Shown here piece by piece: positions 29,545-58,857 of a stretch of 64,000 nucleotides of DNA. The translations under genes and the position numbers were made by a program. Source of the DNA: Euglena gracilis (lineage: Eukaryota); assembly GCA_039621445.1 (NCBI GenBank), contig CP154954.1, positions 372,001 through 436,000 on the forward strand, in the 5' to 3' direction. Position 1 is the first letter of the stretch. Every line of letters starts with the position of its first letter. The notes below the pieces were generated by a model. The model had not been told where the DNA came from. It saw nothing but the letters and a program-made list of their open reading frames with translations, and searched no databases.

Positions 29545-29572
29545 ACTTGTTTTGCGTCTATAATTTGTAGGC

Positions 29573-30229: not shown

Positions 30230-30230
30230 T

Positions 30231-30302
30231 GGCGGCATGGCCAAGCGGTAAGGCAGAAGATTGCAAATCTTTTATTCCCCAGTTCGATTCTGGGTGTCGT
30301 CT
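30231..30302 (+). tRNA. trnC: tRNA-Cys(GCA)
   Basis: Cloverleaf, loop TTGCAAA; 1 nt downstream of trnF. Confidence 0.95.
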
Positions 30303-30472
30303 TTAAGAGAATTGAAGAAACAATAAAACAAAAAATACATAGATGATTCCGGTATTTACTTCTTAAAATAATAAAGAAAATTTTTTTTTATGAAATATTT
30401 TTATATATCTTTTATAACTATTATTTTCTTTATATGTATGTTACGCTACTCGTTTTTTAAATTTAATTAAAT

Positions 30473-31896: not shown

Positions 31897-31938
31897 AGGT
31901 TTCAGTGACTTTCATAATAATTTTTTATTTTTCGAGAA

Positions 31939-33552
31939 ATGAAGATTGTTTTATTATATTATTTTTGTGATTTCAATCCCTTTCATATGAAGTTTGTTTT
32001 AATTATATTTTTTAATTTTTTGAATTTTTAAGACTTCTTCTTTTAGTTAAAACTTTTTTAAAAAATTTTTTCTGTAAACATGTTTATTTCGGGCATTTTT
32101 CTGTTGATTTTAAAAATTAAACATTCTTTTAACAATAAAAATTTTTTCGGATTTTTTATAAATATAAATATTTTGATTAAATACTTCCTAAGAAAATTTT
32201 AACTTTTAAAAATTGCTAATGTTTTGCGATTTAAATAATTTTCATTTAAAAGTTCAGATGTAGAAACTTTAATTCAAATTTATTGCTATTTATAAGAATA
32301 TTTAAAAATATTTTATTATTTTTAAGAAGTTGGGCAACACTTTTATTGGTCAATTTTAGGTTTTCAAATTCACGGGCAAGTATTAATTAATTCTTGGATT
32401 GTTATATTAATAATAGGTTTTTTAAGTATTTATACTACAAAAAATCTTACTTTAGTACCAGCAAACAAACAAATTTTTATAGAACTTGTCACAGAATTTA
32501 TAACAGACATTTCAAAAACTCAAATAGGTGAAAAAGAATATTCAAAATGGGTTCCTTATATTGGAACTATGTTTTTATTTATCTTTGTGTCAAATTGGTC
32601 AGGGGCACTAATTCCTTGGAAAATTATTGAACTTCCAAATGGAGAGTTGGGAGCACCTACAAATGATATGTGCGTTTTGAATTTATCATAAAAAGTTTAT
32701 TCAAAATGGTTTATAAAGCAATGGAATTAATAAAGTAATTTTATTTGTCTGAAACTCTAAAATTTGGTTAATTTATTAAATATTTGCAATAAAATATCCT
32801 TTTTTTTTTTAACATTTATAGTTGATAAAGATTTCTGATAAAACAAATATGTATTTATTAATTTTATTATTTATTTATAGATAAGACTCAACATTTATTA
32901 AAGTGTAGTTGTTAGATCTTTTTTTTATAATTGTAAGTTATATACGTTTTGTAATGTAGGTATAAATTTTAAGAGGATGTTTTCTATCTATTTAATACTA
33001 CGGCAGGACTTGCTATATTGACATCTTTAGCGTATTTTTATGCTGGACTTAACAAAAAGGTTTTGTCGTATATTTTATTAAAGAATTTTAAATTTACTAA
33101 GCTTACTTTAATTTATATAAATTTTATAGTTTTTTTATTAATTACTTAATAAAGAATTTAAATTCTATTAAACTTAACATATTTTAAAAAATATGTTCAA
33201 CCTACTCCAATTTTATTGCCCATTAATATTTTGGAGGATTTTACTAAACCTCTTTCCTTAAGTTTCAGACTTTTTGGTAATATTTTAGCAGATGAATTAG
33301 TAGTAGCGGTATTGGTTTCTTTGGTACCGCTAATTGTTCCTGTTCCTTTAATTTTTTTAGGTTTATTTACTAGTGGTATTCAAGCTTTAATTTTTGCAAC
33401 TTTGTCTGGATCAACGCGATTTCCCATTTATTAAAATTTGTATTTTTTATAATGACAATTATAGAACTAATTAATACTATTATTTTTTTTAGTTTATGAA
33501 GGATTATTTTTATCTAAATTATATCGGTGAAGCAATGGAAGGTCATCATTAA
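31939..33552 (+). CDS. atpI: ATP synthase CF0 subunit IV (a), multiple small introns; 5' exon boundaries uncertain
   Basis: [59 protein letters not shown]. Confidence 0.9.
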
Positions 33553-33666
33553 TAGTAAGTGATATTAAGTAACATTTTATTACCCAAGTATTAATTTTTA
33601 ATATTCAATCCTTTATTCTTTAATTTAATTAAATTAAAAGTTCAAAATTTAACTTTTAAGCAATAA

Positions 33667-33930
<264 letters not shown>

Positions 33931-34045
33931 TTTTAATATTAGATTTTTAATAAAAAAATTTTAAAATTTAATCGAGAGTATAATACTGTATAGTTTATAT
34001 TTTGAGGTTTCCTAAAATGAAAGCAACTATTGTGTAAAAAATATC

Positions 34046-36202
34046 GTGGTGTGTGAAACGTTAATGACAATAAATTACTTTTCTAAAATTTTTAGTTAAA
34101 TTTGGCTGTTTGGCTATTAATCTTATTTTAATAATTTTACATGAAAAAGATTACATTGCGAAAAAATTTTAATCTATTTTTACAAATATTATTCATTTTT
34201 CAATTAGAATAAATATATTTGCCGGAATAACGGTAGATTAAGTTTATACATGTTATTTCAAAGGTTAGATTTATTTAAATTATAATTTACAAATATATTA
34301 TAATAAATTGTAGTTAAAATATACTAAATTTTTATAATAAAAATTTTTTTTAATATCATGTTTTAAAAATTTTAAACACTTCTATTATAATTTGAACATA
34401 ATATTAAACCTAATGATTAAAAAACATTAAAATTAAGATACGTTGTTATATGAAATATAAAAATATTTATTAAAGTTGGAATTTCGTATTATTGTTTTTC
34501 TTATTAAACTTGAAAGATAATTCTAGAACTATTTTAAAAAATATTTTAATTTAATAGGTAAAGTGTTGTTTTTAAATTTTTAAAACGCTGTATGATCTGA
34601 AAAGTTCAAATACGGTGTATTTGGGGATATCGAGAATTTTCTCATTATATATCTATCTAAATAATTGATAATTTTAATATTTTCACTATCATTTCTAACG
34701 CTAAGACTTTCGGTATAAATACAAATGTTTTTGAAACGAATATTATAAATTTAGCGATAGTAGTTGGAACCCTGTTTTATTATGGAAAGTTAACTTTTTA
34801 GTCATTATTTTTAATTTTAATTTTACAAATTCAGTAAAATTAATATAAATTATATTTTAAAAAATAATTTTATATAAAAGCTTTTATGTAATTTTGTTGT
34901 GATAACAGTTATAATTATTATAAGTTAAATTTTTTATAAGTAAGAATCATTTATTTTTTAATACAACGGTAATGTTAAAAACATTAAAATATTTATCATT
35001 AATTTTAAACTTAAAAATTATAGAAATTCTTTAAAGATAGAAGATCAATTTCCGATAATTTTGAAATAGATATTAATGAATATTATATAGATTTAAGACG
35101 TATGCAAAAAATTTTGCTCATACCTTTTTGAAAGGAAAATTTTATTTTTATCTAATTTAAGTGATTTACTAAAAACGCGAAAAAAAACTATAATTAAAAA
35201 TATTTTAGATATTGATGAAAAGATCCGTTCTTCGCAAAGTTCTTTATATCTTGCTGAACTTGAATTTGAAAATGCAGCTAAAAAAGCTTCTTTAATTCGT
35301 TCTAATGGTACAACATTTTGTGTGATTCGTCTATTTAAAATTATATTTATTTTTATGGGAATAGAGGAAATTTCTAAAATTAGTATTTTACTAAATATTT
35401 TTAAAAGAATAATTTATCTCTTATCATGAAAATTATAGAAATATTATAAGCAAGAGAAAAATAAGATTATAAACTTTTCATTGTTAATTTTTTATTTCAC
35501 ATTTTATAAAATAGATAATCAAAATGTTTCTTCAATCACCGTTAAGTATAATTTTGCTTATCAAGTTAGGTTATATTATGTTATTGAGAAGAAATTAATA
35601 TAACTATAAGAAAATAATATAAAAATTTGTAATAAAACAACTTTATATTATGTTAACTATCTTAAAACTTTTGGTGAACAATCATATTTATTAGTAATAT
35701 ATTATCAGTAAAAATAACGAAGTAATAAAAATTATTATAAAAGGACGATTCTTATAGGTAAATTTTTTGCTAAAAAAGCTGGTTTATAAAAAATACTAAT
35801 TTACAAACGCAATTTCAATTTATAAAATTTGTTTCAAATTATTTTCAAACTTATAATAAAACAAATAAAATACAATTTTAATTGAATAGCCATATGATTG
35901 GAAATAAATCGTGTATGGTTTCGGATAAGAGTATTAAAAAACTACTTTATCGCCTTAAAAGTTTTGATATAATTCGTTCTTCCGTTAATGAAGATATTAA
36001 ACGTTTAAAGCAATCAAAGCGTTTAATATTAAGAACGGAAGATAAAAAATCTGTTAGAGAAATTTTTAAAAATTTATATTCACAAGCCTGTCAAAAAGCT
36101 AAAGCGACTATTATTAAACGTCTAAATTCAAAAATTCATAAAAAAATTATTCTGAAAAAAATGGAAAAAATGTCGCTTAAGAAATTAAAACCTAAATACT
36201 AA
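34046..36202 (+). CDS. atpF: ATP synthase CF0 subunit I (b); probable GTG start in a 5-nt exon, three group II introns
   Basis: FGINTNVFETNIINLAIVVG exon at ~34663-34797; lies between atpH and atpA; last exon is the end of ORF 35882..36202. Confidence 0.85.
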
Positions 36203-36306
36203 GAAAAAACTAAATACATATATGTATTGTTTATGTTGAAAATTTTGACTTATTAATTTTGTATTTATATGTTTAGCATTGTCTATATATGCCCCAGGCC
36301 CAAGCT

Positions 36307-38977
36307 ATGATCAGAGTTCGCCCGAATGAAGTTACTAGGATAATTCGTCAACAGGTAAAGAAATATCGTCAAGAATTAAAAATTGTTAACGTAGGAACTG
36401 TGCTTCAAGTAGGGGACGGAATAGCTAGGATTTATGGGCTTGAAAAAGTGATGGCGGGCGAACTTGTAGAATTTGATGAAGGTACTATTGGAATTGCTTT
36501 GAATTTAGAGGCTGACAATGTTGGAGCCGTTTTAATGGGCGAAGCTACTAATTTAAAAGAAGGTGCTTCAGTTAAAACAACAGGAAAGATTGCTCAAATT
36601 CCTGTAGGTAGAGGTTTTTTAGGTCGAGTTGTTGATGCCTTGGCACGTCCTATAGATGGAAAAGGGGATATTGCATCATTTACAACACGATTAATAGAGT
36701 CTCCTGCTCCAGGTATTGTTTCAAGACGTTCAGTTCATGAACCTTTGCAAACAGGATTAATTGCGATAGATGCAATGATTCCAATAGGAAGAGGACAACG
36801 CGAACTTATTATTGGTGATCGCCAAACAGGCAAAACAGCTGTTGCTACAGATACGATTTTAAACCAAAAAGGACAAGGGGTTATTTGTGTTTACGTAGCT
36901 ATTGGACAGAAAGCGTCTTCTGTTTCACAAATAGTAACTACGTTAGAAAAACGTGGGGCTATGGAATATACAATAATAGTTGCAGAAAATGCGGATTCAT
37001 CTGCTACACTACAATATTTAGCTCCTTATACAGGTGCAGCTTTGGCGGAATATTTCAGTGCGGCATGTTGTCTTAAAACAAATTTTATAAAAAACATAAT
37101 TAAAAATTTTAAATCTCTTTTTTATTATAAGTAAATTATTAATTTTTATTCTTATAAATTTTTTATTTAAATTGTAATCTTCAATTATATTATACATTAA
37201 AGCATGAAGCAAAGTAGTTATATGGAAATAAAAAAGGTTATTTAAAATAGAATTATTGTCTTAAAATTGTTTTATTTGTCTGTAATATTATGCTTAATTT
37301 CATTATTGAATTATGAAATTATTTAATAATTTTTTAACAATTATTATAAACAAAAATCTTTTTATTAAAATAGAAAGAGAAACTTGTTAGGTTATAATTT
37401 TTTTCCCATTATATGGATTTTAGGTTAACAAAATGCTAAATATAAAATTATAAAAGCGAATTGAATTAATGTTAAAATTTTTAATTAATTAAAAAAATAA
37501 ACCCAAAATTTGATAACATTTGCAATTTCGTAAACAAAATATGACTTTATAATTTGTTTAAAAGAAATTATTCATATGATAGGAGCCGTATGAAGTAAAA
37601 GCTTCATGTACGTTTCTGAAAGGAAATATATTGAGTAATTATTATATTTACCAACGTGTATAATGGAAAACATACGTTAGTTATTTATGATGATCTTTCA
37701 TTGCGAGTTGTAAAAGTCTTATTGTTATTTTTTATACTAAAGAATATTTAGATGAAAGATTTATAAACATTAAAAACACAAAATTAAACGAACTAAGCTT
37801 TTATTAAAATTTTGTCAATAATTGAACTCTTATTTTTTGATTGTAAGTATTATTTAAGTAAAATTTTTTGAACACAAAAAACTAAAAATTTTATAATTTT
37901 TTGAAAGATAATATAATCGTAATTTACTAATGTTTTCTATTTTCTATAAAATTTTAATAATAATTCTTAAAAATAAGGGTATAACAACTAACAAAAATAT
38001 ATTGCTAAAAATAATATTTTTTATATTTATTCTTTGATATGAAAGTCTTTCAAGATTAGTTAATTTACAAATAAAAGAAAGTACTATTTAAAATTGTTTT
38101 TTGGATATTATTACTAGTAAACCTTGAAGAATTATTATTATTATTAACTAAAAATATTATTATTATAATTATTGATTTGAGCCGTGTGCACTAAAACTTG
38201 CATGCACGATTCTTTATGAAGAAATTGTTATATTTAAATTTTCTATCACGAAAACAAGCACAAGCTTATAGACAAATGTCATTATTACTACGTCGTCCAC
38301 CTGGACGCGAAGCATATCCGGGAGATGTATTCTATTTACATTCAAGATTATTAGAACGAGCAGCTAAATTAAGTGATGAATTAGGACAAGGAAGTATGAC
38401 AGCTTTACCAATTGTAGAAACTCAAGCAGGAGATGTTTCAGCATACATACCTACAAATGTTATTTCTATTACGGACGGACAAGTCTTTTTATCAGCCGAC
38501 ATATTTAATTCGGGGATTCGTCCAGCTATTAATGTAGGTATTTCCGTGTCAAGAGTTGGATCTGCTGCGCAGATAAAAGCTATGAAACAAGTAGCAGGAA
38601 AACTTAAATTAGAACTAGCTCAATTTGCAGAATTAGAGGCTTTTTCACAATTTGCGTCAGATTTAGATCAAGCTACACAAAATCAATTGGCTCGTGGTGC
38701 AAGATTAAGAGAATTATTAAAACAACCTCAAGCTTCACCATTGTCAGTAGCAGATCAAGTGGCAACAATATATACAGGTATTAATGGATACTTGGACGAT
38801 ATAAATCTTGAAGATGTTAGGGGATTCCTTATAGAATTACGAGAGCACATCAATAATGAAAAACCCACTTTTAAAGAAATAATAAATAAAACTAAAACTT
38901 TTACACAAGAGGCAGAATTATTACTTAAATTCACTATTATTGATTTAAAAAAAAAAAAAAAAAAAAGAATTAAATAA
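36307..38977 (+). CDS. atpA: ATP synthase CF1 alpha; exons 36307-37057, 37657-37700, 38252-38977
   Basis: Walker [52 protein letters not shown]. Confidence 0.97.
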
Positions 38978-39162
38978 CTCGATATTAGTTATAATAGTAA
39001 AAATATGCCAATAATATCTATGTATTTGCCCGAATAAATGAAAAACTTTAAAAAATTCAGTAAATAAAAAACAAAATTTTTCCCTTAATAATGGGAACAA
39101 ATTTAATAAATTTTAACTAAATTTATATTAAATTTATTTATGTTATAAGATGTTTTAACTTT

Positions 39163-39891
39163 ATGAAATTTGTGATTGTACTTTTAAATAAATTAAAATA
39201 AAATATTATAAAATAAAATTATTTTTAATATAAATCTTAACAAAATTTTAGAAAGAATTTTTATCATATACCCAGCACTTATTGATTATAAAAATGTTAA
39301 TATTCTTAGAAGATTCATAAACTTTCAAGGTAAAATAATTCCAAAACGATTAAACAAACCTAAATTAACATATAAACAGCACCGTCTTCTAAGAAAATCT
39401 TTTTGATTTTATTTAAAATATTAAAAAAATTAAAATGACAATAATATCAATAATCAAACAATAAAAAATTTTTTTGTCTTTCTAAGAAAAAACATATTAT
39501 GTTTTCACGTTAAAATTATTAAAAAATAGTAAAAATAATAGTGACATTAAAACAATAAAATTGAGTATTCCACAAAAATTTTAAAAACAAATACATATTT
39601 TTTATAAAATTCTTTATATTTTGAAAAACATTTAGTTATTTTTAATATAAATTTGTAAAATGATTGTTCTTATTTTTTAAAAATTACAAAATTGTAAGAT
39701 TAAAAATTTTAATTAAAAATAAAATAATTTAAATTATTTAATTAAAAATTAAAATTATTTTCTTTAGTAGATTAAAATATACGCATTTTAAAGATTAATA
39801 TTATGACTACATTTTAATAAAAGTATATTCAAAAGTTAAACAAGCACGCTATTTAGGCTTACTTCCTTTTAAAACTAAAGATTTTTTTTAA
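39163..39891 (+). CDS. rps18: Ribosomal protein S18; ~100-nt intron after codon 2 and 434-nt intron 39401-39834
   Basis: [23 protein letters not shown]...KQHRLLRKS / [12 protein letters not shown]. Confidence 0.9.
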
Positions 39892-39919
39892 TATTCTTTA
39901 GTTTTAATACTTCAAATTT

Positions 39920-40051
<132 letters not shown>

Positions 40052-40146
40052 CTAAATAAAATTTACCTTTCAATTTCATACAAATACGTTCATTAAATCT
40101 ATAACGATTTTTGTAAATTTATTATAAATAATAAAGAAAACCTTAT

Positions 40147-40220
40147 CGGGATGTAGCGCAGTTTGGTAGCGCATTGCATTTGGGATGCAAGGGTCGCAGG
40201 TTCGAATCCTGTCATCCCGA
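40147..40220 (+). tRNA. trnP: tRNA-Pro(UGG)
   Basis: Cloverleaf, loop TTTGGGA. Confidence 0.95.
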
Positions 40221-40230
40221 AAAACAGAAA

Positions 40231-40315
40231 GGAGAGGTGTCTGAGTGGTTTAAAGTACTGGTCTTGAAAACCAGCGTAGTTTTTGCTACCGAGGGTTCGA
40301 ATCCCTCCTTCTCCG
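40231..40315 (+). tRNA. trnS: tRNA-Ser(UGA)
   Basis: Cloverleaf, loop CTTGAAA, long variable arm. Confidence 0.95.
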
Positions 40316-40428
40316 AATTAAAATGAAAATTAAAATAAATTTGACGTTTTTAATACAAATCACAATATTTTATTATAAATAATATAAAATTATTTTGATC
40401 TTAATTTAAATTTAAATATTAAAAAAAT

Positions 40429-41198
40429 TTATGCATTAGTTAAAGTAACTAAATTAGAAGATTGCAATGCTTTGATAAATGCATTGAAAGGTGTAACACT
40501 TCCATCTGTAGTCAGATCAAAAATCATATAATTATCAAAAATTCATCTTTTTCTATAATTAAATTTAATCTTTTAATAGGCTTTTGAAAACTGGCTTTTT
40601 TTGCTTCTATTTTTAATAAAATTTTTAAAGTAATATTAAAGGAAATTTTAGTAAACAATAATTCTCGTGAATTTAGTAGTTTTAAATGAGGAGGAAATAT
40701 TATATCTCCTGATAAAAAATCTTTCACTTCAAAAGCATTTAAAACAGCAAAAAATTTATTACCTTGGTAGGATTTTGAACATAATTTAAAACGTAGAAGT
40801 TTGAATTTTTTAGTTATTTCGAGTAAACTTTGTTTTAACTCTTCTAAACCTAAAAAGTTGTGAACAACATGAAAAGTACTAGTATTTTTTAAATTATTTG
40901 TGACAAAGAACATAACATTTGTAATGTTCCAACTCTCAAAAAAATAGATCTTAATCTTTCAATTATAACGAATATTTATATAAATTTTTTATTAGGAAAA
41001 ATTTATTTCTTTTATTAACAATCTTAAAATATTGTAAATTTAATTAAATTATCTAAACAAATCTAGTAATAAATACCTTCTAATTTCAGTAACAAAAAAG
41101 TTTTTATCAAAAAATTGTAGATTTTTTACTTTAAAAAAAGCCAAATTACCATCTTTTAATAGCCTACTTCTTAAAACATATATTTTTAAATATTTCAT
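40429..41198 (-). CDS. rpoA: Divergent RNA polymerase alpha subunit (frameshifted near 40540 in this copy)
   Basis: Mirror of 47884..48654. Confidence 0.7.
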
Positions 41199-41363
41199 AA
41201 AAGATTCATAATAAATAATTACGTTCTATAAAAAAAGAAAAAAAATAATTTTTGTTAAAATTAATAAGGATTTATTGTTAAACAAAACATAATTTTTTAA
41301 ATTAATTTAAACTATATTCTTAGATCAAAATTCATCAAAAATAAAAAAAAGAAAAAATATGAA

Positions 41364-41561
41364 TTATAAGAAAATACCATCCAATATTCCTATTAAAAAA
41401 ACTAAAAAAAACCAGAAGCGACACGCCAACCAAATACGAGATTTGTTATTTTCCCATCCTTTAGGAGAAGCAAAAATAACTGGCAGCGTAAGAACCAATA
41501 TAAAAGAGAAAATAATTAGAGCTAAAACTAAAGCTTGAAACGTAAATGTAAATAAAAGCAT
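41364..41561 (-). CDS. psbZ: Photosystem II protein Z (ycf9)
   Basis: FQALVLALIIFSFILVLTLPVIFASPKGWENNK. Confidence 0.95.
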   Translation of the reverse strand: MLLFTFTFQALVLALIIFSFILVLTLPVIFASPKGWENNKSRIWLACRFWFFLVFLIGILDGIFL

Positions 41562-41749
41562 AATAACTAAAAGTTAAACATTTTACACTTAAACCAAATA
41601 TAAAAAACTAAAATATATACTAAATCACTTTTATAAAAAAGAATTGTACTTCTTTTATACAATTTTTAAAAATAATTAAAAAATCAATAAAGAAAACAAC
41701 TAATAATTATAGAATAAATAAAAATATTATTTAAAGGTTATGTATAAAC

Positions 41750-42249
41750 TTATTTAATAATTATTGAAGCTCCTGCTTCTTCTAGAAGTTTTTTAGTTTC
41801 TTCTGCTACTTCTTTTGATACAGCCTCACATACAACCTTTGGAACAGATTCAATAAGATCTTTAGCTTCTTTAAGACCTAATGTTGTTAAACTACGGACA
41901 GTTTTAATAACATTAATTCTTTTTGCACTTGGAACTTCTTGGATGATAACATCAAATTCAGTTTTTTCCTCCACTACAGTTTCATCCGCTTTTGAAGGTA
42001 AAATTGATGGATTCGTATTACTAGCTGACAAAGCAATAGTAGCATCAACACCGAAGGTATTTTCAAAAAAGTAATAATATTCTAAATTATAAAAAATAAA
42101 AAATATTATTTTATGTAAAATATAATAATAAAAGCTAAAAAAAATAAAATTTTTTTACAAAACCCCAAAATTTGTTTAACTAGCTCGTAAGCTTCTAGTA
42201 AAGTAATTTTTTTAAGTCTTTCTAAAATTTCATCTGTTTCTGTTGACAT
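41750..42249 (-). CDS. rpl12: Ribosomal protein L12, one group III intron
   Basis: Mirror of 46832..47331. Confidence 0.93.
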
Positions 42250-42344
42250 AATAAAAATAATTCTTCAATAAAAAAAATAAAATTTTTCTACAAAAATTTT
42301 TACATATACCTATTAAGAAGTTATTCTTAAAAAATAAGAAGATT

Positions 42345-44047
42345 CTATCTTTTTGAGAATTGTGGCGCTTTGCGCGCTTTTTTCAAACCGTATTAATAAA
42401 CTAGAAAAAAGTTCTGTTACAAAACTAAACATCTTTTTTATTTCATTAAAAAATGTAAGATTAAGCTTTTGAAATAGATGATACTATTTTCTTTTTTTTA
42501 ATTAATAATCTATTGTTAGAGATTGTAACGATTATACAAAACTATACTTTCCCTATTATTAAAATAAAATTGTTTTTAAAATTAAAAAGAAATTATATAA
42601 TATAAACAACTATTTTTTATAAAATGAATAATAATTAATGAAAAATTACATATTTGAATTAACTTTATAGTAAATAGTGTTACAAAGTTAATACAAAAAA
42701 ATAATAGGACTTAAATATACAAACTTCTTCTTTCTTTACACAAAGAATTTCGTGTTAAAAAACCGTTCACTTTCAGTTTTTTTTTGTCTTCCTTTTCTAT
42801 AAAAACGCTTAATGATTTTGATATAGCAAGTTTTTTTACATAAAATAAAATTTCTACAATATAAAACAAAAATATAATCTTTAATTTTTTTAAATTTTTG
42901 GTATTACTCGGTCATAACGCTTAAAAATCATAAAATGGCATCTGCTTGACCAGAAAGGCCTCCTCCTTTTACATAAGCATGAACTTTATAATTATTAATG
43001 TTAAGAAGTTCGAACGGACTACAATAGAATAAAAATATAACTTTCTAATTTTTAAAACAAAAAAAATGTTTTGCAATAGAAAAAACTAAACTAATTAAAA
43101 AATACAAATAAAACACAAATACAACTTTCAACGTTATTTAGATTGTAAATACTTGAAAAAATATATAAAAAAATAGTTTATTAAACAAACAAAAATTAAA
43201 AATAACATTTTAAAAATTCTTTTTCTCAACGAAGGTTATTAGTTGATAGAAAATAAAATTGATAAATTATTTCCCTCAAAAGAACTGGACAAACATCAAT
43301 AAATGTATCCAGCTCATAAAAAGTTTATTAAAATAAAATAGAATAACTTTCATAAATACTTCCTTAATTAAAATTTTATGAACAATAAAGATAATTTATA
43401 ACAATGTTTAATAATCTATCATTTACTTTTTTATATTTGTATATCATAATTTAAAGAAAGTCTTTCGAATAAAATATAAAAATTATAAAAAAATTTAGTT
43501 CTTACGTCTAAGGTAAATTTGAATATTTTGATTTCAAATTAAAAAGAATTTCTATCCAAGAAGTATATTAGTATATTAATATGTGCAACTATATTAATAT
43601 CGATTTAACTTTATTAAAAATTTCAACTGTTATCTTAAACTTAATTTAAATTCAATTATTAACTCGAAATTTATCATCTTTAGGATTAAATTAAAAAATA
43701 ATAAATCTATTAAATGCTTAAAAATTATTAAATAAAAATCAATAATAAAATTTAAATAAACGAGATTATTTTTTTTCCCTTAACTTGGAAATGTTAAATA
43801 AAGACTTTTAGAACTCGCAACTGCAAATAGTTAAAAGCTTTTTCTCCATTAATCAAAATTTCACCACCACCATCTTTAGGAAGGAAGAGAATTATTTTGG
43901 CAATAGAAGATTTTCTAGTTAAATAAAAAATTTTTAAAAAAATTAAATTAAAAAAATTATATGATTCATAATAAATCTAAAATAAATATAAAAAATTTTT
44001 TAAGAAATCCATAACTTACCTATTACTTCAATAGAATTTAATTTCAT
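42345..44047 (-). CDS. rps9: Ribosomal protein S9, seven exons
   Basis: Mirror of 45031..46733. Confidence 0.88.
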
Positions 44048-44158
44048 AAAAATAACTAAAAATAAATTTAACAATAAACAAAATTCTATATTAAAAAATT
44101 TTTTTAATAAAATATAAATATGTCCTTTGAAATTTCCTATCTCAAAGAAAAACCTTAT

Positions 44159-44332
<174 letters not shown>

Positions 44333-44520
44333 CAACTGAGGCCAACAGGAGAAGCGGCGGCAAAGAGCGGGAAAAGCTGAAGAAAAACAGACAGCGCAGA
44401 GTGGTGAAAAGTAACAAGGGACCGGAGAAAAAGAATAAGGAAATAAACAAATTCTGCGAGCAGATAGATGACAAAGCGAAAAACTGGATGCGAAGTGTAT
44501 AAAAGAAAGGAGTTAAAAAA

Positions 44521-44562
44521 ATCGCTCGCTCTGTTCCCTCGCCGGGGGGGGGGGCGAGAGAT
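44521..44562 (+). other. Corrupted PacBio SMRTbell hairpin adapter (technical sequence)
   Basis: ATCGCTCGCTCTGTTCCCTCGCCGGGGGGGGGGGCGAGAGAT versus adapter ATCTCTCTCTTTTCCTCCTCCTCCGTTGTTGTTGTTGAGAGAGAT with T->G errors; lies on the palindrome axis. Confidence 0.85.
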
Positions 44563-44733
44563 AGAGTGAATGTGAGACTGTCATTTTATAAAATTATTAA
44601 TCAAGTTTTTCGATTGATATATCTGATAATAGAATTTTTTTATTTAATTTTATTTTTATCAGGTATTGTTCCTTTTAAAAATATGAGCTGTATGTTTTTA
44701 TTAAGCTTTTACAGATCTTTGAGAAGATTATAA

Positions 44734-44919
<186 letters not shown>

Positions 44920-45030
44920 ATAAGGTTTTTCTTTGAGATAGGAAATTTCAAAGGACATATTTATATTTTATTAAAAAAATTTTTTAATATAGAATTTTGT
45001 TTATTGTTAAATTTATTTTTAGTTATTTTT

Positions 45031-46733
45031 ATGAAATTAAATTCTATTGAAGTAATAGGTAAGTTATGGATTTCTTAAAAAATTTTTTATATTTATTTTA
45101 GATTTATTATGAATCATATAATTTTTTTAATTTAATTTTTTTAAAAATTTTTTATTTAACTAGAAAATCTTCTATTGCCAAAATAATTCTCTTCCTTCCT
45201 AAAGATGGTGGTGGTGAAATTTTGATTAATGGAGAAAAAGCTTTTAACTATTTGCAGTTGCGAGTTCTAAAAGTCTTTATTTAACATTTCCAAGTTAAGG
45301 GAAAAAAAATAATCTCGTTTATTTAAATTTTATTATTGATTTTTATTTAATAATTTTTAAGCATTTAATAGATTTATTATTTTTTAATTTAATCCTAAAG
45401 ATGATAAATTTCGAGTTAATAATTGAATTTAAATTAAGTTTAAGATAACAGTTGAAATTTTTAATAAAGTTAAATCGATATTAATATAGTTGCACATATT
45501 AATATACTAATATACTTCTTGGATAGAAATTCTTTTTAATTTGAAATCAAAATATTCAAATTTACCTTAGACGTAAGAACTAAATTTTTTTATAATTTTT
45601 ATATTTTATTCGAAAGACTTTCTTTAAATTATGATATACAAATATAAAAAAGTAAATGATAGATTATTAAACATTGTTATAAATTATCTTTATTGTTCAT
45701 AAAATTTTAATTAAGGAAGTATTTATGAAAGTTATTCTATTTTATTTTAATAAACTTTTTATGAGCTGGATACATTTATTGATGTTTGTCCAGTTCTTTT
45801 GAGGGAAATAATTTATCAATTTTATTTTCTATCAACTAATAACCTTCGTTGAGAAAAAGAATTTTTAAAATGTTATTTTTAATTTTTGTTTGTTTAATAA
45901 ACTATTTTTTTATATATTTTTTCAAGTATTTACAATCTAAATAACGTTGAAAGTTGTATTTGTGTTTTATTTGTATTTTTTAATTAGTTTATTTTTTTTT
46001 ATTGCAAAACATTTTTTTTGTTTTAAAAATTAGAAAGTTATATTTTTATTCTATTGTAGTCCGTTCGAACTTCTTAACATTAATAATTATAAAGTTCATG
46101 CTTATGTAAAAGGAGGAGGCCTTTCTGGTCAAGCAGATGCCATTTTATGATTTTTAAGCGTTATGACCGAGTAATACCAAAAATTTAAAAAAATTAAAGA
46201 TTATATTTTTGTTTTATATTGTAGAAATTTTATTTTATGTAAAAAAACTTGCTATATCAAAATCATTAAGCGTTTTTATAGAAAAGGAAGACAAAAAAAA
46301 ACTGAAAGTGAACGGTTTTTTAACACGAAATTCTTTGTGTAAAGAAAGAAGAAGTTTGTATATTTAAGTCCTATTATTTTTTTGTATTAACTTTGTAACA
46401 CTATTTACTATAAAGTTAATTCAAATATGTAATTTTTCATTAATTATTATTCATTTTATAAAAAATAGTTGTTTATATTATATAATTTCTTTTTAATTTT
46501 AAAAACAATTTTATTTTAATAATAGGGAAAGTATAGTTTTGTATAATCGTTACAATCTCTAACAATAGATTATTAATTAAAAAAAAGAAAATAGTATCAT
46601 CTATTTCAAAAGCTTAATCTTACATTTTTTAATGAAATAAAAAAGATGTTTAGTTTTGTAACAGAACTTTTTTCTAGTTTATTAATACGGTTTGAAAAAA
46701 GCGCGCAAAGCGCCACAATTCTCAAAAAGATAG
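45031..46733 (+). CDS. rps9: Ribosomal protein S9, seven exons
   Basis: IGK/RKSSIAK...ILING; VKGGGLSGQADAI/KLAISK; GFLTRN...KERRK/YGLKKARKAPQFSKR*. Confidence 0.9.
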
Positions 46734-46831
46734 AATCTTCTTATTTTTTAAGAATAACTTCTTAATAGGTATATGTAAAAATTTTTGTAGAAAAATTTTA
46801 TTTTTTTTATTATTGAAGAATTATTTTTATT

Positions 46832-47331
46832 ATGTCAACAGAAACAGATGAAATTTTAGAAAGACTTAAAAAAATTACTTTACTAGAAGCTTACGAGCTA
46901 GTTAAACAAATTTTGGGGTTTTGTAAAAAAATTTTATTTTTTTTAGCTTTTATTATTATATTTTACATAAAATAATATTTTTTATTTTTTATGATTTAGA
47001 ATATTATTACTTTTTTGAAAATACCTTCGGTGTTGATGCTACTATTGCTTTGTCAGCTAGTAATACGAATCCATCAATTTTACCTTCAAAAGCGGATGAA
47101 ACTGTAGTGGAGGAAAAAACTGAATTTGATGTTATCATCCAAGAAGTTCCAAGTGCAAAAAGAATTAATGTTATTAAAACTGTCCGTAGTTTAACAACAT
47201 TAGGTCTTAAAGAAGCTAAAGATCTTATTGAATCTGTTCCAAAGGTTGTATGTGAGGCTGTATCAAAAGAAGTAGCAGAAGAAACTAAAAAACTTCTAGA
47301 AGAAGCAGGAGCTTCAATAATTATTAAATAA
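46832..47331 (+). CDS. rpl12: Ribosomal protein L12, one group III intron (~46912-47015)
   Basis: [27 protein letters not shown] / ENTFGVDA...EEKTEFDV...[12 protein letters not shown]. Confidence 0.94.
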
Positions 47332-47520
47332 GTTTATACATAACCTTTAAATAATATTTTTATTTATTCTATAATTATTAGTTGTTTTCTTTATTGATTT
47401 TTTTAATTATTTTTATTTTTTTTTTAAAAGAAGTACAATTCTTTTTTATAAAAGTGATTTAGTATATATTTTAGTTTTTTATATTTGGTTTAAGTGTAAA
47501 ATGTTTAACTTTTAGTTATT

Positions 47521-47718
47521 ATGCTTTTATTTACATTTACGTTTCAAGCTTTAGTTTTAGCTCTAATTATTTTCTCTTTTATATTGGTTCTTACGCTGCC
47601 AGTTATTTTTGCTTCTCCTAAAGGATGGGAAAATAACAAATCTCGTATTTGGTTGGCGTGTCGCTTCTGGTTTTTTTTAGTTTTTTTAATAGGAATATTG
47701 GATGGTATTTTCTTATAA
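47521..47718 (+). CDS. psbZ: Photosystem II protein Z, mirror
   Basis: Identical ORF. Confidence 0.95.
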   Translation: MLLFTFTFQALVLALIIFSFILVLTLPVIFASPKGWENNKSRIWLACRFWFFLVFLIGILDGIFL

Positions 47719-47883
47719 TTCATATTTTTTCTTTTTTTTATTTTTGATGAATTTTGATCTAAGAATATAGTTTAAATTAATTTAAAAAATTATGTTTTGT
47801 TTAACAATAAATCCTTATTAATTTTAACAAAAATTATTTTTTTTCTTTTTTTATAGAACGTAATTATTTATTATGAATCTTTT

Positions 47884-48654
47884 ATGAAATATTTAAAAAT
47901 ATATGTTTTAAGAAGTAGGCTATTAAAAGATGGTAATTTGGCTTTTTTTAAAGTAAAAAATCTACAATTTTTTGATAAAAACTTTTTTGTTACTGAAATT
48001 AGAAGGTATTTATTACTAGATTTGTTTAGATAATTTAATTAAATTTACAATATTTTAAGATTGTTAATAAAAGAAATAAATTTTTCCTAATAAAAAATTT
48101 ATATAAATATTCGTTATAATTGAAAGATTAAGATCTATTTTTTTGAGAGTTGGAACATTACAAATGTTATGTTCTTTGTCACAAATAATTTAAAAAATAC
48201 TAGTACTTTTCATGTTGTTCACAACTTTTTAGGTTTAGAAGAGTTAAAACAAAGTTTACTCGAAATAACTAAAAAATTCAAACTTCTACGTTTTAAATTA
48301 TGTTCAAAATCCTACCAAGGTAATAAATTTTTTGCTGTTTTAAATGCTTTTGAAGTGAAAGATTTTTTATCAGGAGATATAATATTTCCTCCTCATTTAA
48401 AACTACTAAATTCACGAGAATTATTGTTTACTAAAATTTCCTTTAATATTACTTTAAAAATTTTATTAAAAATAGAAGCAAAAAAAGCCAGTTTTCAAAA
48501 GCCTATTAAAAGATTAAATTTAATTATAGAAAAAGATGAATTTTTTGATAATTATATGATTTTTGATCTGACTACAGATGGAAGTGTTACACCTTTCAAT
48601 GCATTTATCAAAGCATTGCAATCTTCTAATTTAGTTACTTTAACTAATGCATAA
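47884..48654 (+). CDS. rpoA: Highly divergent RNA polymerase alpha subunit, one small intron (~48020-48145)
   Basis: Exon 1 ends TEIRRYLL (cf. nalRRxLL); exon 2 has DIIFPPHLKLLN and DYMIFDLTTDGSVTP-like motif (cf. lei.TnGsi.P). Confidence 0.75.
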
Positions 48655-48763
48655 ATTTTTTTAATATTTAAATTTAAATTAAGATCAAAATAATTTTATA
48701 TTTTATAATAAAATTGTGATTTGTATTAAAAACGTCAAATTTATTTTAATTTTCATTTTAATT

Positions 48764-48848
48764 CGGAGAAGGAGGGATTCGAACCCTCGGTAGCAAAAAC
48801 TACGCTGGTTTTCAAGACCAGTACTTTAAACCACTCAGACACCTCTCC
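48764..48848 (-). tRNA. trnS: tRNA-Ser(UGA), mirror
   Basis: Reverse complement of 40231..40315. Confidence 0.93.
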
Positions 48849-48858
48849 TTTCTGTTTT

Positions 48859-48932
48859 TCGGGATGACAGGATTCGAACCTGCGACCCTTGCATCCCAAA
48901 TGCAATGCGCTACCAAACTGCGCTACATCCCG
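48859..48932 (-). tRNA. trnP: tRNA-Pro(UGG), mirror
   Basis: Reverse complement of 40147..40220. Confidence 0.93.
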
Positions 48933-49027
48933 ATAAGGTTTTCTTTATTATTTATAATAAATTTACAAAAATCGTTATAGATTTAATGAACGTATTTGTA
49001 TGAAATTGAAAGGTAAATTTTATTTAG

Positions 49028-49159
<132 letters not shown>

Positions 49160-49187
49160 AAATTTGAAGTATTAAAACTAAAGAATA

Positions 49188-49917
49188 TTAAAAAAAATCT
49201 TTAGTTTTAAAAGGAAGTAAGCCTAAATAGCGTGCTTGTTTAACTTTTGAATATACTTTTATTAAAATGTAGTCATAATATTAATCTTTAAAATGCGTAT
49301 ATTTTAATCTACTAAAGAAAATAATTTTAATTTTTAATTAAATAATTTAAATTATTTTATTTTTAATTAAAATTTTTAATCTTACAATTTTGTAATTTTT
49401 AAAAAATAAGAACAATCATTTTACAAATTTATATTAAAAATAACTAAATGTTTTTCAAAATATAAAGAATTTTATAAAAAATATGTATTTGTTTTTAAAA
49501 TTTTTGTGGAATACTCAATTTTATTGTTTTAATGTCACTATTATTTTTACTATTTTTTAATAATTTTAACGTGAAAACATAATATGTTTTTTCTTAGAAA
49601 GACAAAAAAATTTTTTATTGTTTGATTATTGATATTATTGTCATTTTAATTTTTTTAATATTTTAAATAAAATCAAAAAGATTTTCTTAGAAGACGGTGC
49701 TGTTTATATGTTAATTTAGGTTTGTTTAATCGTTTTGGAATTATTTTACCTTGAAAGTTTATGAATCTTCTAAGAATATTAACATTTTTATAATCAATAA
49801 GTGCTGGGTATATGATAAAAATTCTTTCTAAAATTTTGTTAAGATTTATATTAAAAATAATTTTATTTTATAATATTTTTATTTTAATTTATTTAAAAGT
49901 ACAATCACAAATTTCAT
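49188..49917 (-). CDS. rps18: Ribosomal protein S18, mirror
   Basis: Reverse complement of 39163..39891. Confidence 0.88.
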
Positions 49918-50102
49918 AAAGTTAAAACATCTTATAACATAAATAAATTTAATATAAATTTAGTTAAAATTTATTAAATTTGTTCCCATTATTAAGGGAA
50001 AAATTTTGTTTTTTATTTACTGAATTTTTTAAAGTTTTTCATTTATTCGGGCAAATACATAGATATTATTGGCATATTTTTACTATTATAACTAATATCG
50101 AG

Positions 50103-52776
50103 TTATTTAATTCTTTTTTTGAAATTTTTTTTTAAATCAATAATAGTGAATTTAAGTAATAATTCTGCCTCTTGTGTAAAAGTTTTAGTTTTATTTATTA
50201 TTTCTTTAAAAGTGGGTTTTTCATTATTGATGTGCTCTCGTAATTCTATAAGGAATCCCCTAACATCTTCAAGATTTATATCGTCCAAGTATCCATTAAT
50301 ACCTGTATATATTGTTGCCACTTGATCTGCTACTGACAATGGTGAAGCTTGAGGTTGTTTTAATAATTCTCTTAATCTTGCACCACGAGCCAATTGATTT
50401 TGTGTAGCTTGATCTAAATCTGACGCAAATTGTGAAAAAGCCTCTAATTCTGCAAATTGAGCTAGTTCTAATTTAAGTTTTCCTGCTACTTGTTTCATAG
50501 CTTTTATCTGCGCAGCAGATCCAACTCTTGACACGGAAATACCTACATTAATAGCTGGACGAATCCCCGAATTAAATATGTCGGCTGATAAAAAGACTTG
50601 TCCGTCCGTAATAGAAATAACATTTGTAGGTATGTATGCTGAAACATCTCCTGCTTGAGTTTCTACAATTGGTAAAGCTGTCATACTTCCTTGTCCTAAT
50701 TCATCACTTAATTTAGCTGCTCGTTCTAATAATCTTGAATGTAAATAGAATACATCTCCCGGATATGCTTCGCGTCCAGGTGGACGACGTAGTAATAATG
50801 ACATTTGTCTATAAGCTTGTGCTTGTTTTCGTGATAGAAAATTTAAATATAACAATTTCTTCATAAAGAATCGTGCATGCAAGTTTTAGTGCACACGGCT
50901 CAAATCAATAATTATAATAATAATATTTTTAGTTAATAATAATAATAATTCTTCAAGGTTTACTAGTAATAATATCCAAAAAACAATTTTAAATAGTACT
51001 TTCTTTTATTTGTAAATTAACTAATCTTGAAAGACTTTCATATCAAAGAATAAATATAAAAAATATTATTTTTAGCAATATATTTTTGTTAGTTGTTATA
51101 CCCTTATTTTTAAGAATTATTATTAAAATTTTATAGAAAATAGAAAACATTAGTAAATTACGATTATATTATCTTTCAAAAAATTATAAAATTTTTAGTT
51201 TTTTGTGTTCAAAAAATTTTACTTAAATAATACTTACAATCAAAAAATAAGAGTTCAATTATTGACAAAATTTTAATAAAAGCTTAGTTCGTTTAATTTT
51301 GTGTTTTTAATGTTTATAAATCTTTCATCTAAATATTCTTTAGTATAAAAAATAACAATAAGACTTTTACAACTCGCAATGAAAGATCATCATAAATAAC
51401 TAACGTATGTTTTCCATTATACACGTTGGTAAATATAATAATTACTCAATATATTTCCTTTCAGAAACGTACATGAAGCTTTTACTTCATACGGCTCCTA
51501 TCATATGAATAATTTCTTTTAAACAAATTATAAAGTCATATTTTGTTTACGAAATTGCAAATGTTATCAAATTTTGGGTTTATTTTTTTAATTAATTAAA
51601 AATTTTAACATTAATTCAATTCGCTTTTATAATTTTATATTTAGCATTTTGTTAACCTAAAATCCATATAATGGGAAAAAAATTATAACCTAACAAGTTT
51701 CTCTTTCTATTTTAATAAAAAGATTTTTTGTTTATAATAATTTAGTTAAAAAATTATTAAATAATTTCATAATTCAATAATGAAATTAAGCATAATATTA
51801 CAGACAAATAAAACAATTTTAAGACAATAATTCTATTTTAAATAACCTTTTTTATTTCCATATAACTACTTTGCTTCATGCTTTAATGTATAATATAATT
51901 GAAGATTACAATTTAAATAAAAAATTTATAAGAATAAAAATTAATAATTTACTTATAATAAAAAAGAGATTTAAAATTTTTAATTATGTTTTTTATAAAA
52001 TTTGTTTTAAGACAACATGCCGCACTGAAATATTCCGCCAAAGCTGCACCTGTATAAGGAGCTAAATATTGTAGTGTAGCAGATGAATCCGCATTTTCTG
52101 CAACTATTATTGTATATTCCATAGCCCCACGTTTTTCTAACGTAGTTACTATTTGTGAAACAGAAGACGCTTTCTGTCCAATAGCTACGTAAACACAAAT
52201 AACCCCTTGTCCTTTTTGGTTTAAAATCGTATCTGTAGCAACAGCTGTTTTGCCTGTTTGGCGATCACCAATAATAAGTTCGCGTTGTCCTCTTCCTATT
52301 GGAATCATTGCATCTATCGCAATTAATCCTGTTTGCAAAGGTTCATGAACTGAACGTCTTGAAACAATACCTGGAGCAGGAGACTCTATTAATCGTGTTG
52401 TAAATGATGCAATATCCCCTTTTCCATCTATAGGACGTGCCAAGGCATCAACAACTCGACCTAAAAAACCTCTACCTACAGGAATTTGAGCAATCTTTCC
52501 TGTTGTTTTAACTGAAGCACCTTCTTTTAAATTAGTAGCTTCGCCCATTAAAACGGCTCCAACATTGTCAGCCTCTAAATTCAAAGCAATTCCAATAGTA
52601 CCTTCATCAAATTCTACAAGTTCGCCCGCCATCACTTTTTCAAGCCCATAAATCCTAGCTATTCCGTCCCCTACTTGAAGCACAGTTCCTACGTTAACAA
52701 TTTTTAATTCTTGACGATATTTCTTTACCTGTTGACGAATTATCCTAGTAACTTCATTCGGGCGAACTCTGATCAT
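50103..52776 (-). CDS. atpA: ATP synthase CF1 alpha, mirror
   Basis: ORFs 51949..52794 and 50103..50882. Confidence 0.96.
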
Positions 52777-52880
52777 AGCTTGGGCCTGGGGCATATATAG
52801 ACAATGCTAAACATATAAATACAAAATTAATAAGTCAAAATTTTCAACATAAACAATACATATATGTATTTAGTTTTTTC

Positions 52881-55038
52881 TTAGTATTTAGGTTTTAATT
52901 TCTTAAGCGACATTTTTTCCATTTTTTTCAGAATAATTTTTTTATGAATTTTTGAATTTAGACGTTTAATAATAGTCGCTTTAGCTTTTTGACAGGCTTG
53001 TGAATATAAATTTTTAAAAATTTCTCTAACAGATTTTTTATCTTCCGTTCTTAATATTAAACGCTTTGATTGCTTTAAACGTTTAATATCTTCATTAACG
53101 GAAGAACGAATTATATCAAAACTTTTAAGGCGATAAAGTAGTTTTTTAATACTCTTATCCGAAACCATACACGATTTATTTCCAATCATATGGCTATTCA
53201 ATTAAAATTGTATTTTATTTGTTTTATTATAAGTTTGAAAATAATTTGAAACAAATTTTATAAATTGAAATTGCGTTTGTAAATTAGTATTTTTTATAAA
53301 CCAGCTTTTTTAGCAAAAAATTTACCTATAAGAATCGTCCTTTTATAATAATTTTTATTACTTCGTTATTTTTACTGATAATATATTACTAATAAATATG
53401 ATTGTTCACCAAAAGTTTTAAGATAGTTAACATAATATAAAGTTGTTTTATTACAAATTTTTATATTATTTTCTTATAGTTATATTAATTTCTTCTCAAT
53501 AACATAATATAACCTAACTTGATAAGCAAAATTATACTTAACGGTGATTGAAGAAACATTTTGATTATCTATTTTATAAAATGTGAAATAAAAAATTAAC
53601 AATGAAAAGTTTATAATCTTATTTTTCTCTTGCTTATAATATTTCTATAATTTTCATGATAAGAGATAAATTATTCTTTTAAAAATATTTAGTAAAATAC
53701 TAATTTTAGAAATTTCCTCTATTCCCATAAAAATAAATATAATTTTAAATAGACGAATCACACAAAATGTTGTACCATTAGAACGAATTAAAGAAGCTTT
53801 TTTAGCTGCATTTTCAAATTCAAGTTCAGCAAGATATAAAGAACTTTGCGAAGAACGGATCTTTTCATCAATATCTAAAATATTTTTAATTATAGTTTTT
53901 TTTTGTGTTTTTAGTAAATCACTTAAATTAGATAAAAATAAAATTTTCCTTTCAAAAAGGTATGAGCAAAATTTTTTGCATACGTCTTAAATCTATATAA
54001 TATTCATTAATATCTATTTCAAAATTATCGGAAATTGATCTTCTATCTTTAAAGAATTTCTATAATTTTTAAGTTTAAAATTAATGATAAATATTTTAAT
54101 GTTTTTAACATTACCGTTGTATTAAAAAATAAATGATTCTTACTTATAAAAAATTTAACTTATAATAATTATAACTGTTATCACAACAAAATTACATAAA
54201 AGCTTTTATATAAAATTATTTTTTAAAATATAATTTATATTAATTTTACTGAATTTGTAAAATTAAAATTAAAAATAATGACTAAAAAGTTAACTTTCCA
54301 TAATAAAACAGGGTTCCAACTACTATCGCTAAATTTATAATATTCGTTTCAAAAACATTTGTATTTATACCGAAAGTCTTAGCGTTAGAAATGATAGTGA
54401 AAATATTAAAATTATCAATTATTTAGATAGATATATAATGAGAAAATTCTCGATATCCCCAAATACACCGTATTTGAACTTTTCAGATCATACAGCGTTT
54501 TAAAAATTTAAAAACAACACTTTACCTATTAAATTAAAATATTTTTTAAAATAGTTCTAGAATTATCTTTCAAGTTTAATAAGAAAAACAATAATACGAA
54601 ATTCCAACTTTAATAAATATTTTTATATTTCATATAACAACGTATCTTAATTTTAATGTTTTTTAATCATTAGGTTTAATATTATGTTCAAATTATAATA
54701 GAAGTGTTTAAAATTTTTAAAACATGATATTAAAAAAAATTTTTATTATAAAAATTTAGTATATTTTAACTACAATTTATTATTAATATATTTGTAAATT
54801 ATAATTTAAATAAATCTAACCTTTGAAATAACATGTATAAACTTAATCTACCGTTATTCCGGCAAATATATTTATTCTAATTGAAAAATGAATAATATTT
54901 GTAAAAATAGATTAAAATTTTTTCGCAATGTAATCTTTTTCATGTAAAATTATTAAAATAAGATTAATAGCCAAACAGCCAAATTTAACTAAAAATTTTA
55001 GAAAAGTAATTTATTGTCATTAACGTTTCACACACCAC
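52881..55038 (-). CDS. atpF: ATP synthase CF0 subunit I, mirror
   Basis: Reverse complement of 34046..36202. Confidence 0.85.
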
Positions 55039-55153
55039 GATATTTTTTACACAATAGTTGCTTTCATTTTAGGAAACCTCAAAATATAAACTATACAGTA
55101 TTATACTCTCGATTAAATTTTAAAATTTTTTTATTAAAAATCTAATATTAAAA

Positions 55154-55417
<264 letters not shown>

Positions 55418-55531
55418 TTATTGCTTAAAAGTTAAATTTTGAACTTTTAATTTAATTAAATTAAAGAATAAAGGATTGAATATTAAAAATTAATACTTGG
55501 GTAATAAAATGTTACTTAATATCACTTACTA

Positions 55532-57147
55532 TTAATGATGACCTTCCATTGCTTCACCGATATAATTTAGATAAAAATAATCCTTCATAAACTAAAAAAA
55601 ATAATAGTATTAATTAGTTCTATAATTGTCATTATAAAAAATACAAATTTTAATAAATGGGAAATCGCGTTGATCCAGACAAAGTTGCAAAAATTAAAGC
55701 TTGAATACCACTAGTAAATAAACCTAAAAAAATTAAAGGAACAGGAACAATTAGCGGTACCAAAGAAACCAATACCGCTACTACTAATTCATCTGCTAAA
55801 ATATTACCAAAAAGTCTGAAACTTAAGGAAAGAGGTTTAGTAAAATCCTCCAAAATATTAATGGGCAATAAAATTGGAGTAGGTTGAACATATTTTTTAA
55901 AATATGTTAAGTTTAATAGAATTTAAATTCTTTATTAAGTAATTAATAAAAAAACTATAAAATTTATATAAATTAAAGTAAGCTTAGTAAATTTAAAATT
56001 CTTTAATAAAATATACGACAAAACCTTTTTTGTTAAGTCCAGCATAAAAATACGCTAAAGATGTCAATATAGCAAGTCCTGCCGTAGTATTAAATAGATA
56101 GAAAACATCCTCTTAAAATTTATACCTACATTACAAAACGTATATAACTTACAATTATAAAAAAAAGATCTAACAACTACACTTTAATAAATGTTGAGTC
56201 TTATCTATAAATAAATAATAAAATTAATAAATACATATTTGTTTTATCAGAAATCTTTATCAACTATAAATGTTAAAAAAAAAAAGGATATTTTATTGCA
56301 AATATTTAATAAATTAACCAAATTTTAGAGTTTCAGACAAATAAAATTACTTTATTAATTCCATTGCTTTATAAACCATTTTGAATAAACTTTTTATGAT
56401 AAATTCAAAACGCACATATCATTTGTAGGTGCTCCCAACTCTCCATTTGGAAGTTCAATAATTTTCCAAGGAATTAGTGCCCCTGACCAATTTGACACAA
56501 AGATAAATAAAAACATAGTTCCAATATAAGGAACCCATTTTGAATATTCTTTTTCACCTATTTGAGTTTTTGAAATGTCTGTTATAAATTCTGTGACAAG
56601 TTCTATAAAAATTTGTTTGTTTGCTGGTACTAAAGTAAGATTTTTTGTAGTATAAATACTTAAAAAACCTATTATTAATATAACAATCCAAGAATTAATT
56701 TAATACTTGCCCGTGAATTTGAAAACCTAAAATTGACCAATAAAAGTGTTGCCCAACTTCTTAAAAATAATAAAATATTTTTAAATATTCTTATAAATAG
56801 CAATAAATTTGAATTAAAGTTTCTACATCTGAACTTTTAAATGAAAATTATTTAAATCGCAAAACATTAGCAATTTTTAAAAGTTAAAATTTTCTTAGGA
56901 AGTATTTAATCAAAATATTTATATTTATAAAAAATCCGAAAAAATTTTTATTGTTAAAAGAATGTTTAATTTTTAAAATCAACAGAAAAATGCCCGAAAT
57001 AAACATGTTTACAGAAAAAATTTTTTAAAAAAGTTTTAACTAAAAGAAGAAGTCTTAAAAATTCAAAAAATTAAAAAATATAATTAAAACAAACTTCATA
57101 TGAAAGGGATTGAAATCACAAAAATAATATAATAAAACAATCTTCAT
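55532..57147 (-). CDS. atpI: ATP synthase CF0 subunit IV, mirror (1-nt insertion near 56700)
   Basis: Reverse complement of 31939..33552. Confidence 0.88.
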
Positions 57148-57189
57148 TTCTCGAAAAATAAAAAATTATTATGAAAGTCACTGAAACCT

Positions 57190-58614: not shown

Positions 58615-58784
58615 ATTTAATTAAATTTAAAAAACGAGTAGCGTAACATACATATAAAGAAAATAATAGTTATAAAAGATATATAAAAATATTTCATAAA
58701 AAAAAATTTTCTTTATTATTTTAAGAAGTAAATACCGGAATCATCTATGTATTTTTTGTTTTATTGTTTCTTCAATTCTCTTAA

Positions 58785-58856
58785 AGACGACACCCAGAAT
58801 CGAACTGGGGAATAAAAGATTTGCAATCTTCTGCCTTACCGCTTGGCCATGCCGCC
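58785..58856 (-). tRNA. trnC: tRNA-Cys(GCA), mirror
   Basis: Reverse complement of 30231..30302. Confidence 0.93.
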
Positions 58857-58857
58857 A

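Follow-up and report, generated by a model that had tools for sequence, protein, structure and literature searches.

The window analysed here, i.e., the whole stretch of 64,000 nt, has a GC content of 25% and contains 30 tRNA genes arranged as mirrored clusters (Val-Asn-Arg; Leu; Tyr-His-Met-Trp-Glu-Gly; Met; Phe-Cys; Pro-Ser). Split genes observed in the window are rpoC1/rpoC2, rps4, psbB, rpl16, rpl14, rpl5, rps8, atpA, rpl12 and psaC. Furthermore, two group II intron matches were obtained, and no rRNA gene was found within the 64 kb. The gene runs of the window agree with clusters listed for euglenoid plastids in PMC5572947, namely rpl16-rpl14-rpl5-rps8...tRNA-Met, tRNA-Cys...atpA, tRNA-Val/rpoC2-rpoC1 and psbN-psbH-psbT-psbB. 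Based on this agreement, on the tRNA and gene content and on the identity of the encoded PsaC protein (see below), the window is classified as euglenid-type plastid DNA. An open reading frame of at least 214 aa is located at 63354-63998 on the minus strand upstream of rpl16 exon 1 and runs past the window end; its match to the group II intron maturase-specific domain (GIIM) is weak, with an E-value of 0.0007 and a score under the Pfam cut-off.

Self-comparison of the window revealed two palindromes and no direct repeats. The palindrome at 26178-62906, spanning 37 kb, is self-complementary at 99.3% across 36,768 alignment columns, and its coordinate sum of 89084 places the axis at 44542. The original prediction had located this axis at approximately 44540, at a GC-rich 42-mer within a background of about 25% GC, and the computed values agree with both statements: the letters at 44521-44562 are as written there, their GC content is 71%, and the centre of the 42-mer (44541.5) lies on the axis. 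The arms end at 44520 and 44563, flush with the 42-mer, and a genomic spacer is absent. Read on the plus strand, the left arm (26178-44520) is the error-bearing copy and begins within rpl16 intron 1, without rpl16 exon 1. The right arm (44563-62906) represents the clean copy and runs on naturally into the remaining part of rpl16 past 62906.

The axis interrupts psaC, the gene next to it. The psaC 3' exon of the right arm, located at 44749-44916 on the plus strand, comprises 56 codons and carries the second Fe-S motif only. The deduced PsaC part shows 95% identity to PsaC of the euglenid Strombomonas acuminata, which is the best named protein among the best 120 of 299 proteins matching at an E-value of at most 0.001. 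In a tblastn search with the Strombomonas PsaC sequence, residues 28-86 were placed at 44740-44916 (95% identity, E 4e-37), and the mirror copy of the exon, which is damaged, was detected on the minus strand at 44162-44305, so that each arm contains one C..C..C...CP iron-sulfur motif. The first 26 residues of PsaC with their Fe-S motif gave nothing above chance in the window (tblastn, E 13 or worse). Since the 5' psaC codons are absent from the window and the axis sits within the intron, approximately 186 nt upstream of the 3' exon, both psaC copies are truncated. An intact, intron-less psaC gene is present in the metagenome locus L001, where the 5' codons directly precede the corresponding stretch (translation read by eye). 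A 36-nt stretch of the psaC exon recurs identically in this locus at 3395-3430 on the minus strand, i.e., in a clearly different organism, and the exon is thus strongly conserved at the DNA level. Exact searches with this 36-mer yielded no match in genome_contigs and L001 as the one metagenome locus, and the 40-mer immediately right of the axis had no exact match in viral_contigs, genome_contigs or metagenome_contigs. These searches retrieved no contig of the same species from the three collections. Screening of 44250-44850 against Rfam (E-value of at most 10) returned three matches far under their gathering scores (CrfA with 19.9 vs 38, mir-8364 and snoR35), and a group II domain V was not found beside the axis in this search.

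Inverted repeats occur in some euglenophyte plastid genomes, as described in PMC6207741, and the palindrome resembles them in being a large inverted duplication with long, nearly identical arms in plastid DNA of the same organism group. It might therefore represent a real form of the plastid DNA, either hairpin-ended, a head-to-head dimer or a natural inverted repeat, in which the 42-mer would be the natural centre. In a related version of this explanation, a hairpin-ended or head-to-head fold-back would have arisen in the cell when replication made a U-turn at the psaC intron, the GC-rich centre being native or derived from damage and its likeness to an adaptor fortuitous. The natural repeats of Euglenophyta, as characterized in that source, contain the rDNA operon and have single-copy regions between them, whereas the window holds no rRNA gene and the arms are separated by the 42-mer only. 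Moreover, natural repeats keep their genes whole, but here psaC is cut by the axis in both arms and rpl16 is truncated in the left arm. A real plastid form is consequently considered highly improbable, and the replication U-turn deserves just as little credence.

The outer ends of the palindrome differ from each other. On the right side, rpl16 exon 2 (62668-62808, minus strand) lies within the arm, downstream of exon 1, which is located at approximately 63235-63297 on the minus strand in the natural flank past 62906 and whose frame residues 3-29 match residues 1-27 of the chloroplast ribosomal protein uL16 (6eri_AM, E 1.3e-6). On the left side, rpl16 intron 1 adjoins an rpoC1 exon fragment at 26177/26178; this fragment (26040-26177, minus strand) was recognized by a match to RNA_pol_Rpb1_3 (E 9.5e-7) and continues the right arm of the other palindrome, located at 1-25831. 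Comparison of 25832-26177 with the mirror of 62907-63252 revealed no similarity, also in a reduced A/C-vs-G/T alphabet, for which the miscalled flank described below served as a clear positive control. With rpoC1 on the left, rpl16 exon 1 on the right and dissimilar flanks, the position 26177/26178 is thus a further chimeric join, which breaks the rps3-rpl16 neighbourhood; in the conserved euglenid cluster given in PMC5572947, rps3 and not rpoC1 is found beside rpl16. At 62906, the contig appears to return from the chimeric path to genuine sequence. On its outer side, the left arm terminates in the join to rpoC1 and shows no insert end marked by a second adaptor; the source molecule, or the path taken by the contig, was therefore more complex than one clean forward-plus-reverse read. 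Besides the axis of the 37-kb palindrome, the window thus holds two more chimeric joins, i.e., the one at 26177/26178 and the one in the second palindrome, where an adaptor is missing. Within 45 nt of the join at 26177/26178, the arms show a cluster of three A/C differences (26187, 26211 and 26221).

The 42-mer itself is exceptional in its composition. Its GC content is the top value among all 42-nt stretches of the window, and its run of eleven G residues is the sole G or C run longer than five. According to the original prediction, the 42-mer is a remnant of the PacBio SMRTbell hairpin adaptor, the poly-G run of which results from converting T to G, and the adaptor sequence quoted there is identical to the SMRTbell blunt adaptor printed in the methods of PMC5218489, which was used as the reference. 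Under plain local scoring, the 42-mer reached a score of 16 against the adaptor, which was attained by 62 of 5000 shuffles and is not significant; CT-rich sites elsewhere in the window reach 22. In a tolerant scoring scheme, an adaptor T read as G was counted as neutral, and 5000 composition-matched shuffles of the 42-mer served as the control. The relaxed alignment of the axis proposed in the original prediction then produced a forward match to adaptor positions 3-42 with a local score of 37, which none of the 5000 shuffles attained (shuffle maximum 28) and which is the best of the whole window, 14 above the runner-up tile outside the axis (23). In this alignment, 40 of the 45 adaptor positions are found in order and both stem ends are retained, and global alignment of the 42-mer with the 45-nt adaptor comprises 30 matches, nine T>G changes, one A>C change and seven gap columns.

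Identification of the 42-mer depends on allowing one error type, and all 12 single tolerated substitution types were compared. T>G gave the score of 37, A>G gave 21 in the reverse orientation, a value attained by 0 of 1000 shuffles, and the remaining types gave 16-18. Tolerance of T>G is not an arbitrary choice, because T>G miscalls were also detected, independently of the adaptor, in the adjoining stretch 44290-44520 (see below). Against its own reverse complement, the 42-mer scores 14 and is self-complementary at its short ends only, which agrees with a hairpin adaptor whose loop is asymmetric. This centre is also difficult to reconcile with a real plastid form, for it is not symmetric, unlike a replicated hairpin end, and its 71% GC within a 25% GC genome matches a synthetic adaptor. 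The element at 44521-44562 is therefore most likely a badly miscalled PacBio hairpin adaptor. An exact scan of genome_contigs with the adaptor sequence retrieved no place. A second adaptor, as could mark the far end of the insert, was not detected in the window, where no other adaptor-like site exists (next tolerant score 23), and its lack is compatible with a contig path that leaves the chimeric read.

The stretch adjoining the adaptor on its left side (44294-44520, plus strand) was compared with the reverse complement of 44563-44795 and contains a burst of miscalls. In 44290-44520, the right arm predicts 68 T residues, 40 of which appear as G, in line with the earlier claim that the T-to-G error of the adaptor is also present just upstream; across the whole palindrome, G-for-T differences (40 in total) are confined to 44294-44497. 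The other bases were kept to a larger extent (A 92/101, G 19/21, C 33/43), with C read as A at six of the 43 positions, and ten deleted plus eight inserted bases amount to approximately 8% indels. The proportion of T read as G within the adaptor (9/20) is of similar order to that in the flank. Including the indels, the 230-nt left flank diverges from its mirror by about 32% and therefore looks like unpolished single-read sequence, and the GC content of the burst zone is 46% vs 26% in the partner stretch. The burst is confined to the left arm; near the adaptor, the right arm is ordinary AT-rich DNA with a correct PsaC exon. For a one-sided burst of T>G changes and indels, a real plastid form offers no biological reason.

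Differences between the two arms are otherwise rare. Of 107 in total, 60 are located at 44250-44504; the rest of the arm, 18,072 nt in length, contains 47 scattered differences (0.26%), which are mainly one-base length changes in A/T runs, in addition to three spots at which one arm shows a pure homopolymer. At these three spots (28590-28596, 38956-38959 and 41658-41666, with their mirror sites), a pure T or A homopolymer on one arm faces mixed sequence on the other. The scattered differences are typical leftovers of long-read consensus calling. Such differences break reading frames on one arm only, as illustrated by rpoC2, which is represented by 448 aa at 2626-3972 vs 157 plus 283 aa at 21861-23206. 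As homopolymer and length differences of this kind are consensus errors, gene calls from the contig are unreliable.

Consensus errors at A/T runs are also what would be seen if the assembler or polisher alone had produced the palindrome, without any palindromic read, and at least three odd joins within 64 kb of the contig would suit such an origin. However, neither an adaptor-like 42-mer nor a T>G burst restricted to one strand can be created by an assembler, and the self-comparison, which is devoid of direct repeats, uncovered no repeat common to both sides of the joins that could have misled the overlap step. The likelihood of a purely computational origin is accordingly judged to be very small.

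Considering the adaptor match on the axis, the one-sided T>G burst, the indels resembling those of raw reads and the truncation of psaC, the missed-adaptor reading put forward in the original prediction is upheld for the palindrome at 26178-62906, which is very probably a sequencing and assembly artefact caused by a missed SMRTbell adaptor and not a biological structure. In the proposed course of events, the backbone of the long-read contig at 26178-62906 would derive from a single PacBio molecule, in which reading proceeded along one insert strand, passed through the SMRTbell hairpin adaptor and returned on the opposite strand. A burst of miscalls, in which T of the plus strand was read as G and some C as A, with indels as in raw reads, would have extended over the adaptor and approximately 230 nt next to it. 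The adaptor may thereby have become unrecognisable, so that the adaptor finder failed, both passes stayed joined as one palindromic read, and this read entered the layout. Polishing would then have cleaned the arms wherever genuine plastid reads aligned. It would have spared the garbled adaptor and the flank with the miscalls, presumably since the clean right arm was the better target for these reads. The axis itself would thus have been carried by a single molecule.

Two further points on the miscalls are assumptions. A read displays the complement of the adaptor oligonucleotide; in this case the minus strand would have been read, with the right arm first and the miscalls starting in the adaptor loop. 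Moreover, on two-colour PacBio instruments T and G as well as A and C are presumably separated by pulse brightness, so that a single shift in brightness would account for both T>G and C>A; no usable description of the PacBio dye channels explaining T>G was found in a literature search.

Palindromic reads resulting from missed or missing SMRTbell adaptors, which are able to enter and damage de novo assemblies, have been described in PMC6218980. The palindrome studied here corresponds to the missed-adaptor subreads presented there in that the passes lie head to head with a sequence of adaptor length on the axis. It differs from them, as far as they are described in this source, in that the adaptor is located inside a polished contig and is heavily miscalled (nine T>G, seven gap columns and one other change relative to the 45-nt adaptor), and in that the left arm ends in a chimeric join and not in a second adaptor. 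Due to its heavy miscalling, the adaptor would go unnoticed in a screen for exact or near-exact adaptor copies.

The second palindrome of the window requires a different explanation. Its arms, 1-12682 and 13147-25831, are 99.8% identical and cut by the window start, and they enclose a loop of 464 nt (12683-13146) that is AT-rich and non-palindromic. Adaptor-like sequence was not found in the palindrome at 1-25831 in the T>G-tolerant window scan, and comparison of the two loop halves in the reduced A/C-vs-G/T alphabet uncovered no hidden similarity, with a clear positive control. Of its 26 arm differences, ten are located within the last 182 nt before the loop. The arm tips of approximately 20 nt (12664-12682 vs 13147-13168) align poorly and could represent no more than a short, imperfect inverted repeat located where the switch took place. 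This palindrome looks like a fold-back chimera generated by template switching, with an origin other than that of the adaptor-bearing palindrome. The missed-adaptor reading thus holds for 26178-62906 but extends neither to 1-25831, with its 464-nt loop and lacking adaptor, nor to the join at 26177/26178.

As the second palindrome demonstrates, adaptor-free fold-back chimeras occur in the data set, and an artefact of another kind has to be weighed for the 37-kb palindrome as well. It could have originated from a template switch during whole-genome amplification or sequencing or from the hairpin of another platform, in which case the 42-mer would be junk resembling an adaptor, as the weak plain alignment might suggest. 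Amplification is reported in the Pacasus paper (PMC6218980) to yield such palindromes, with long inverted duplications in single long reads, and the palindrome at 1-25831 has this look. The palindrome at 26178-62906 is unlike the amplification chimeras of that paper, since its centre is occupied by an adaptor-like 42-mer instead of a genomic loop. Its arms meet without any loop beyond the 42-mer of adaptor length, in contrast to the arrangement at 1-25831. Furthermore, a chance resemblance is hard to reconcile with an alignment that follows the adaptor in order from stem end to stem end and is unmatched among the shuffles, and the only error type yielding this match is the one independently seen in the flank. 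Another kind of artefact is therefore unlikely, albeit somewhat less so than a real plastid form or an origin in the assembler alone.

Public sequencing runs were searched with 109 words sampled from 43800-45300. Among 24 runs listed, 18 originating from 11 studies contain part of the stretch, and 11 contain half or more, the highest share of words in any listed run being 0.63. Words common to both arms account for 59% of the positions, those of the right arm only for 18% and those of the left flank and the axis only for 23%. The best share of 0.63 is thus below the 0.77 expected for runs containing every natural word (59% + 18%). As totals over all sampled words, the shares establish that none of the runs contains the complete set, and they are compatible with an axis that is missing from all runs.

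The palindrome represents a known kind of technical artefact, and the value of the finding lies in quality control only. A heavily miscalled adaptor can persist in a polished contig where an exact screen misses it, and a one-sided burst of a single substitution type beside the axis of a palindrome represents a practical sign of a missed-adaptor artefact. The contig should be split at 44521-44562 and at 26177/26178, and in its present form it is unsuitable for inferring the structure of the plastid genome, gene copy number or inverted repeats.
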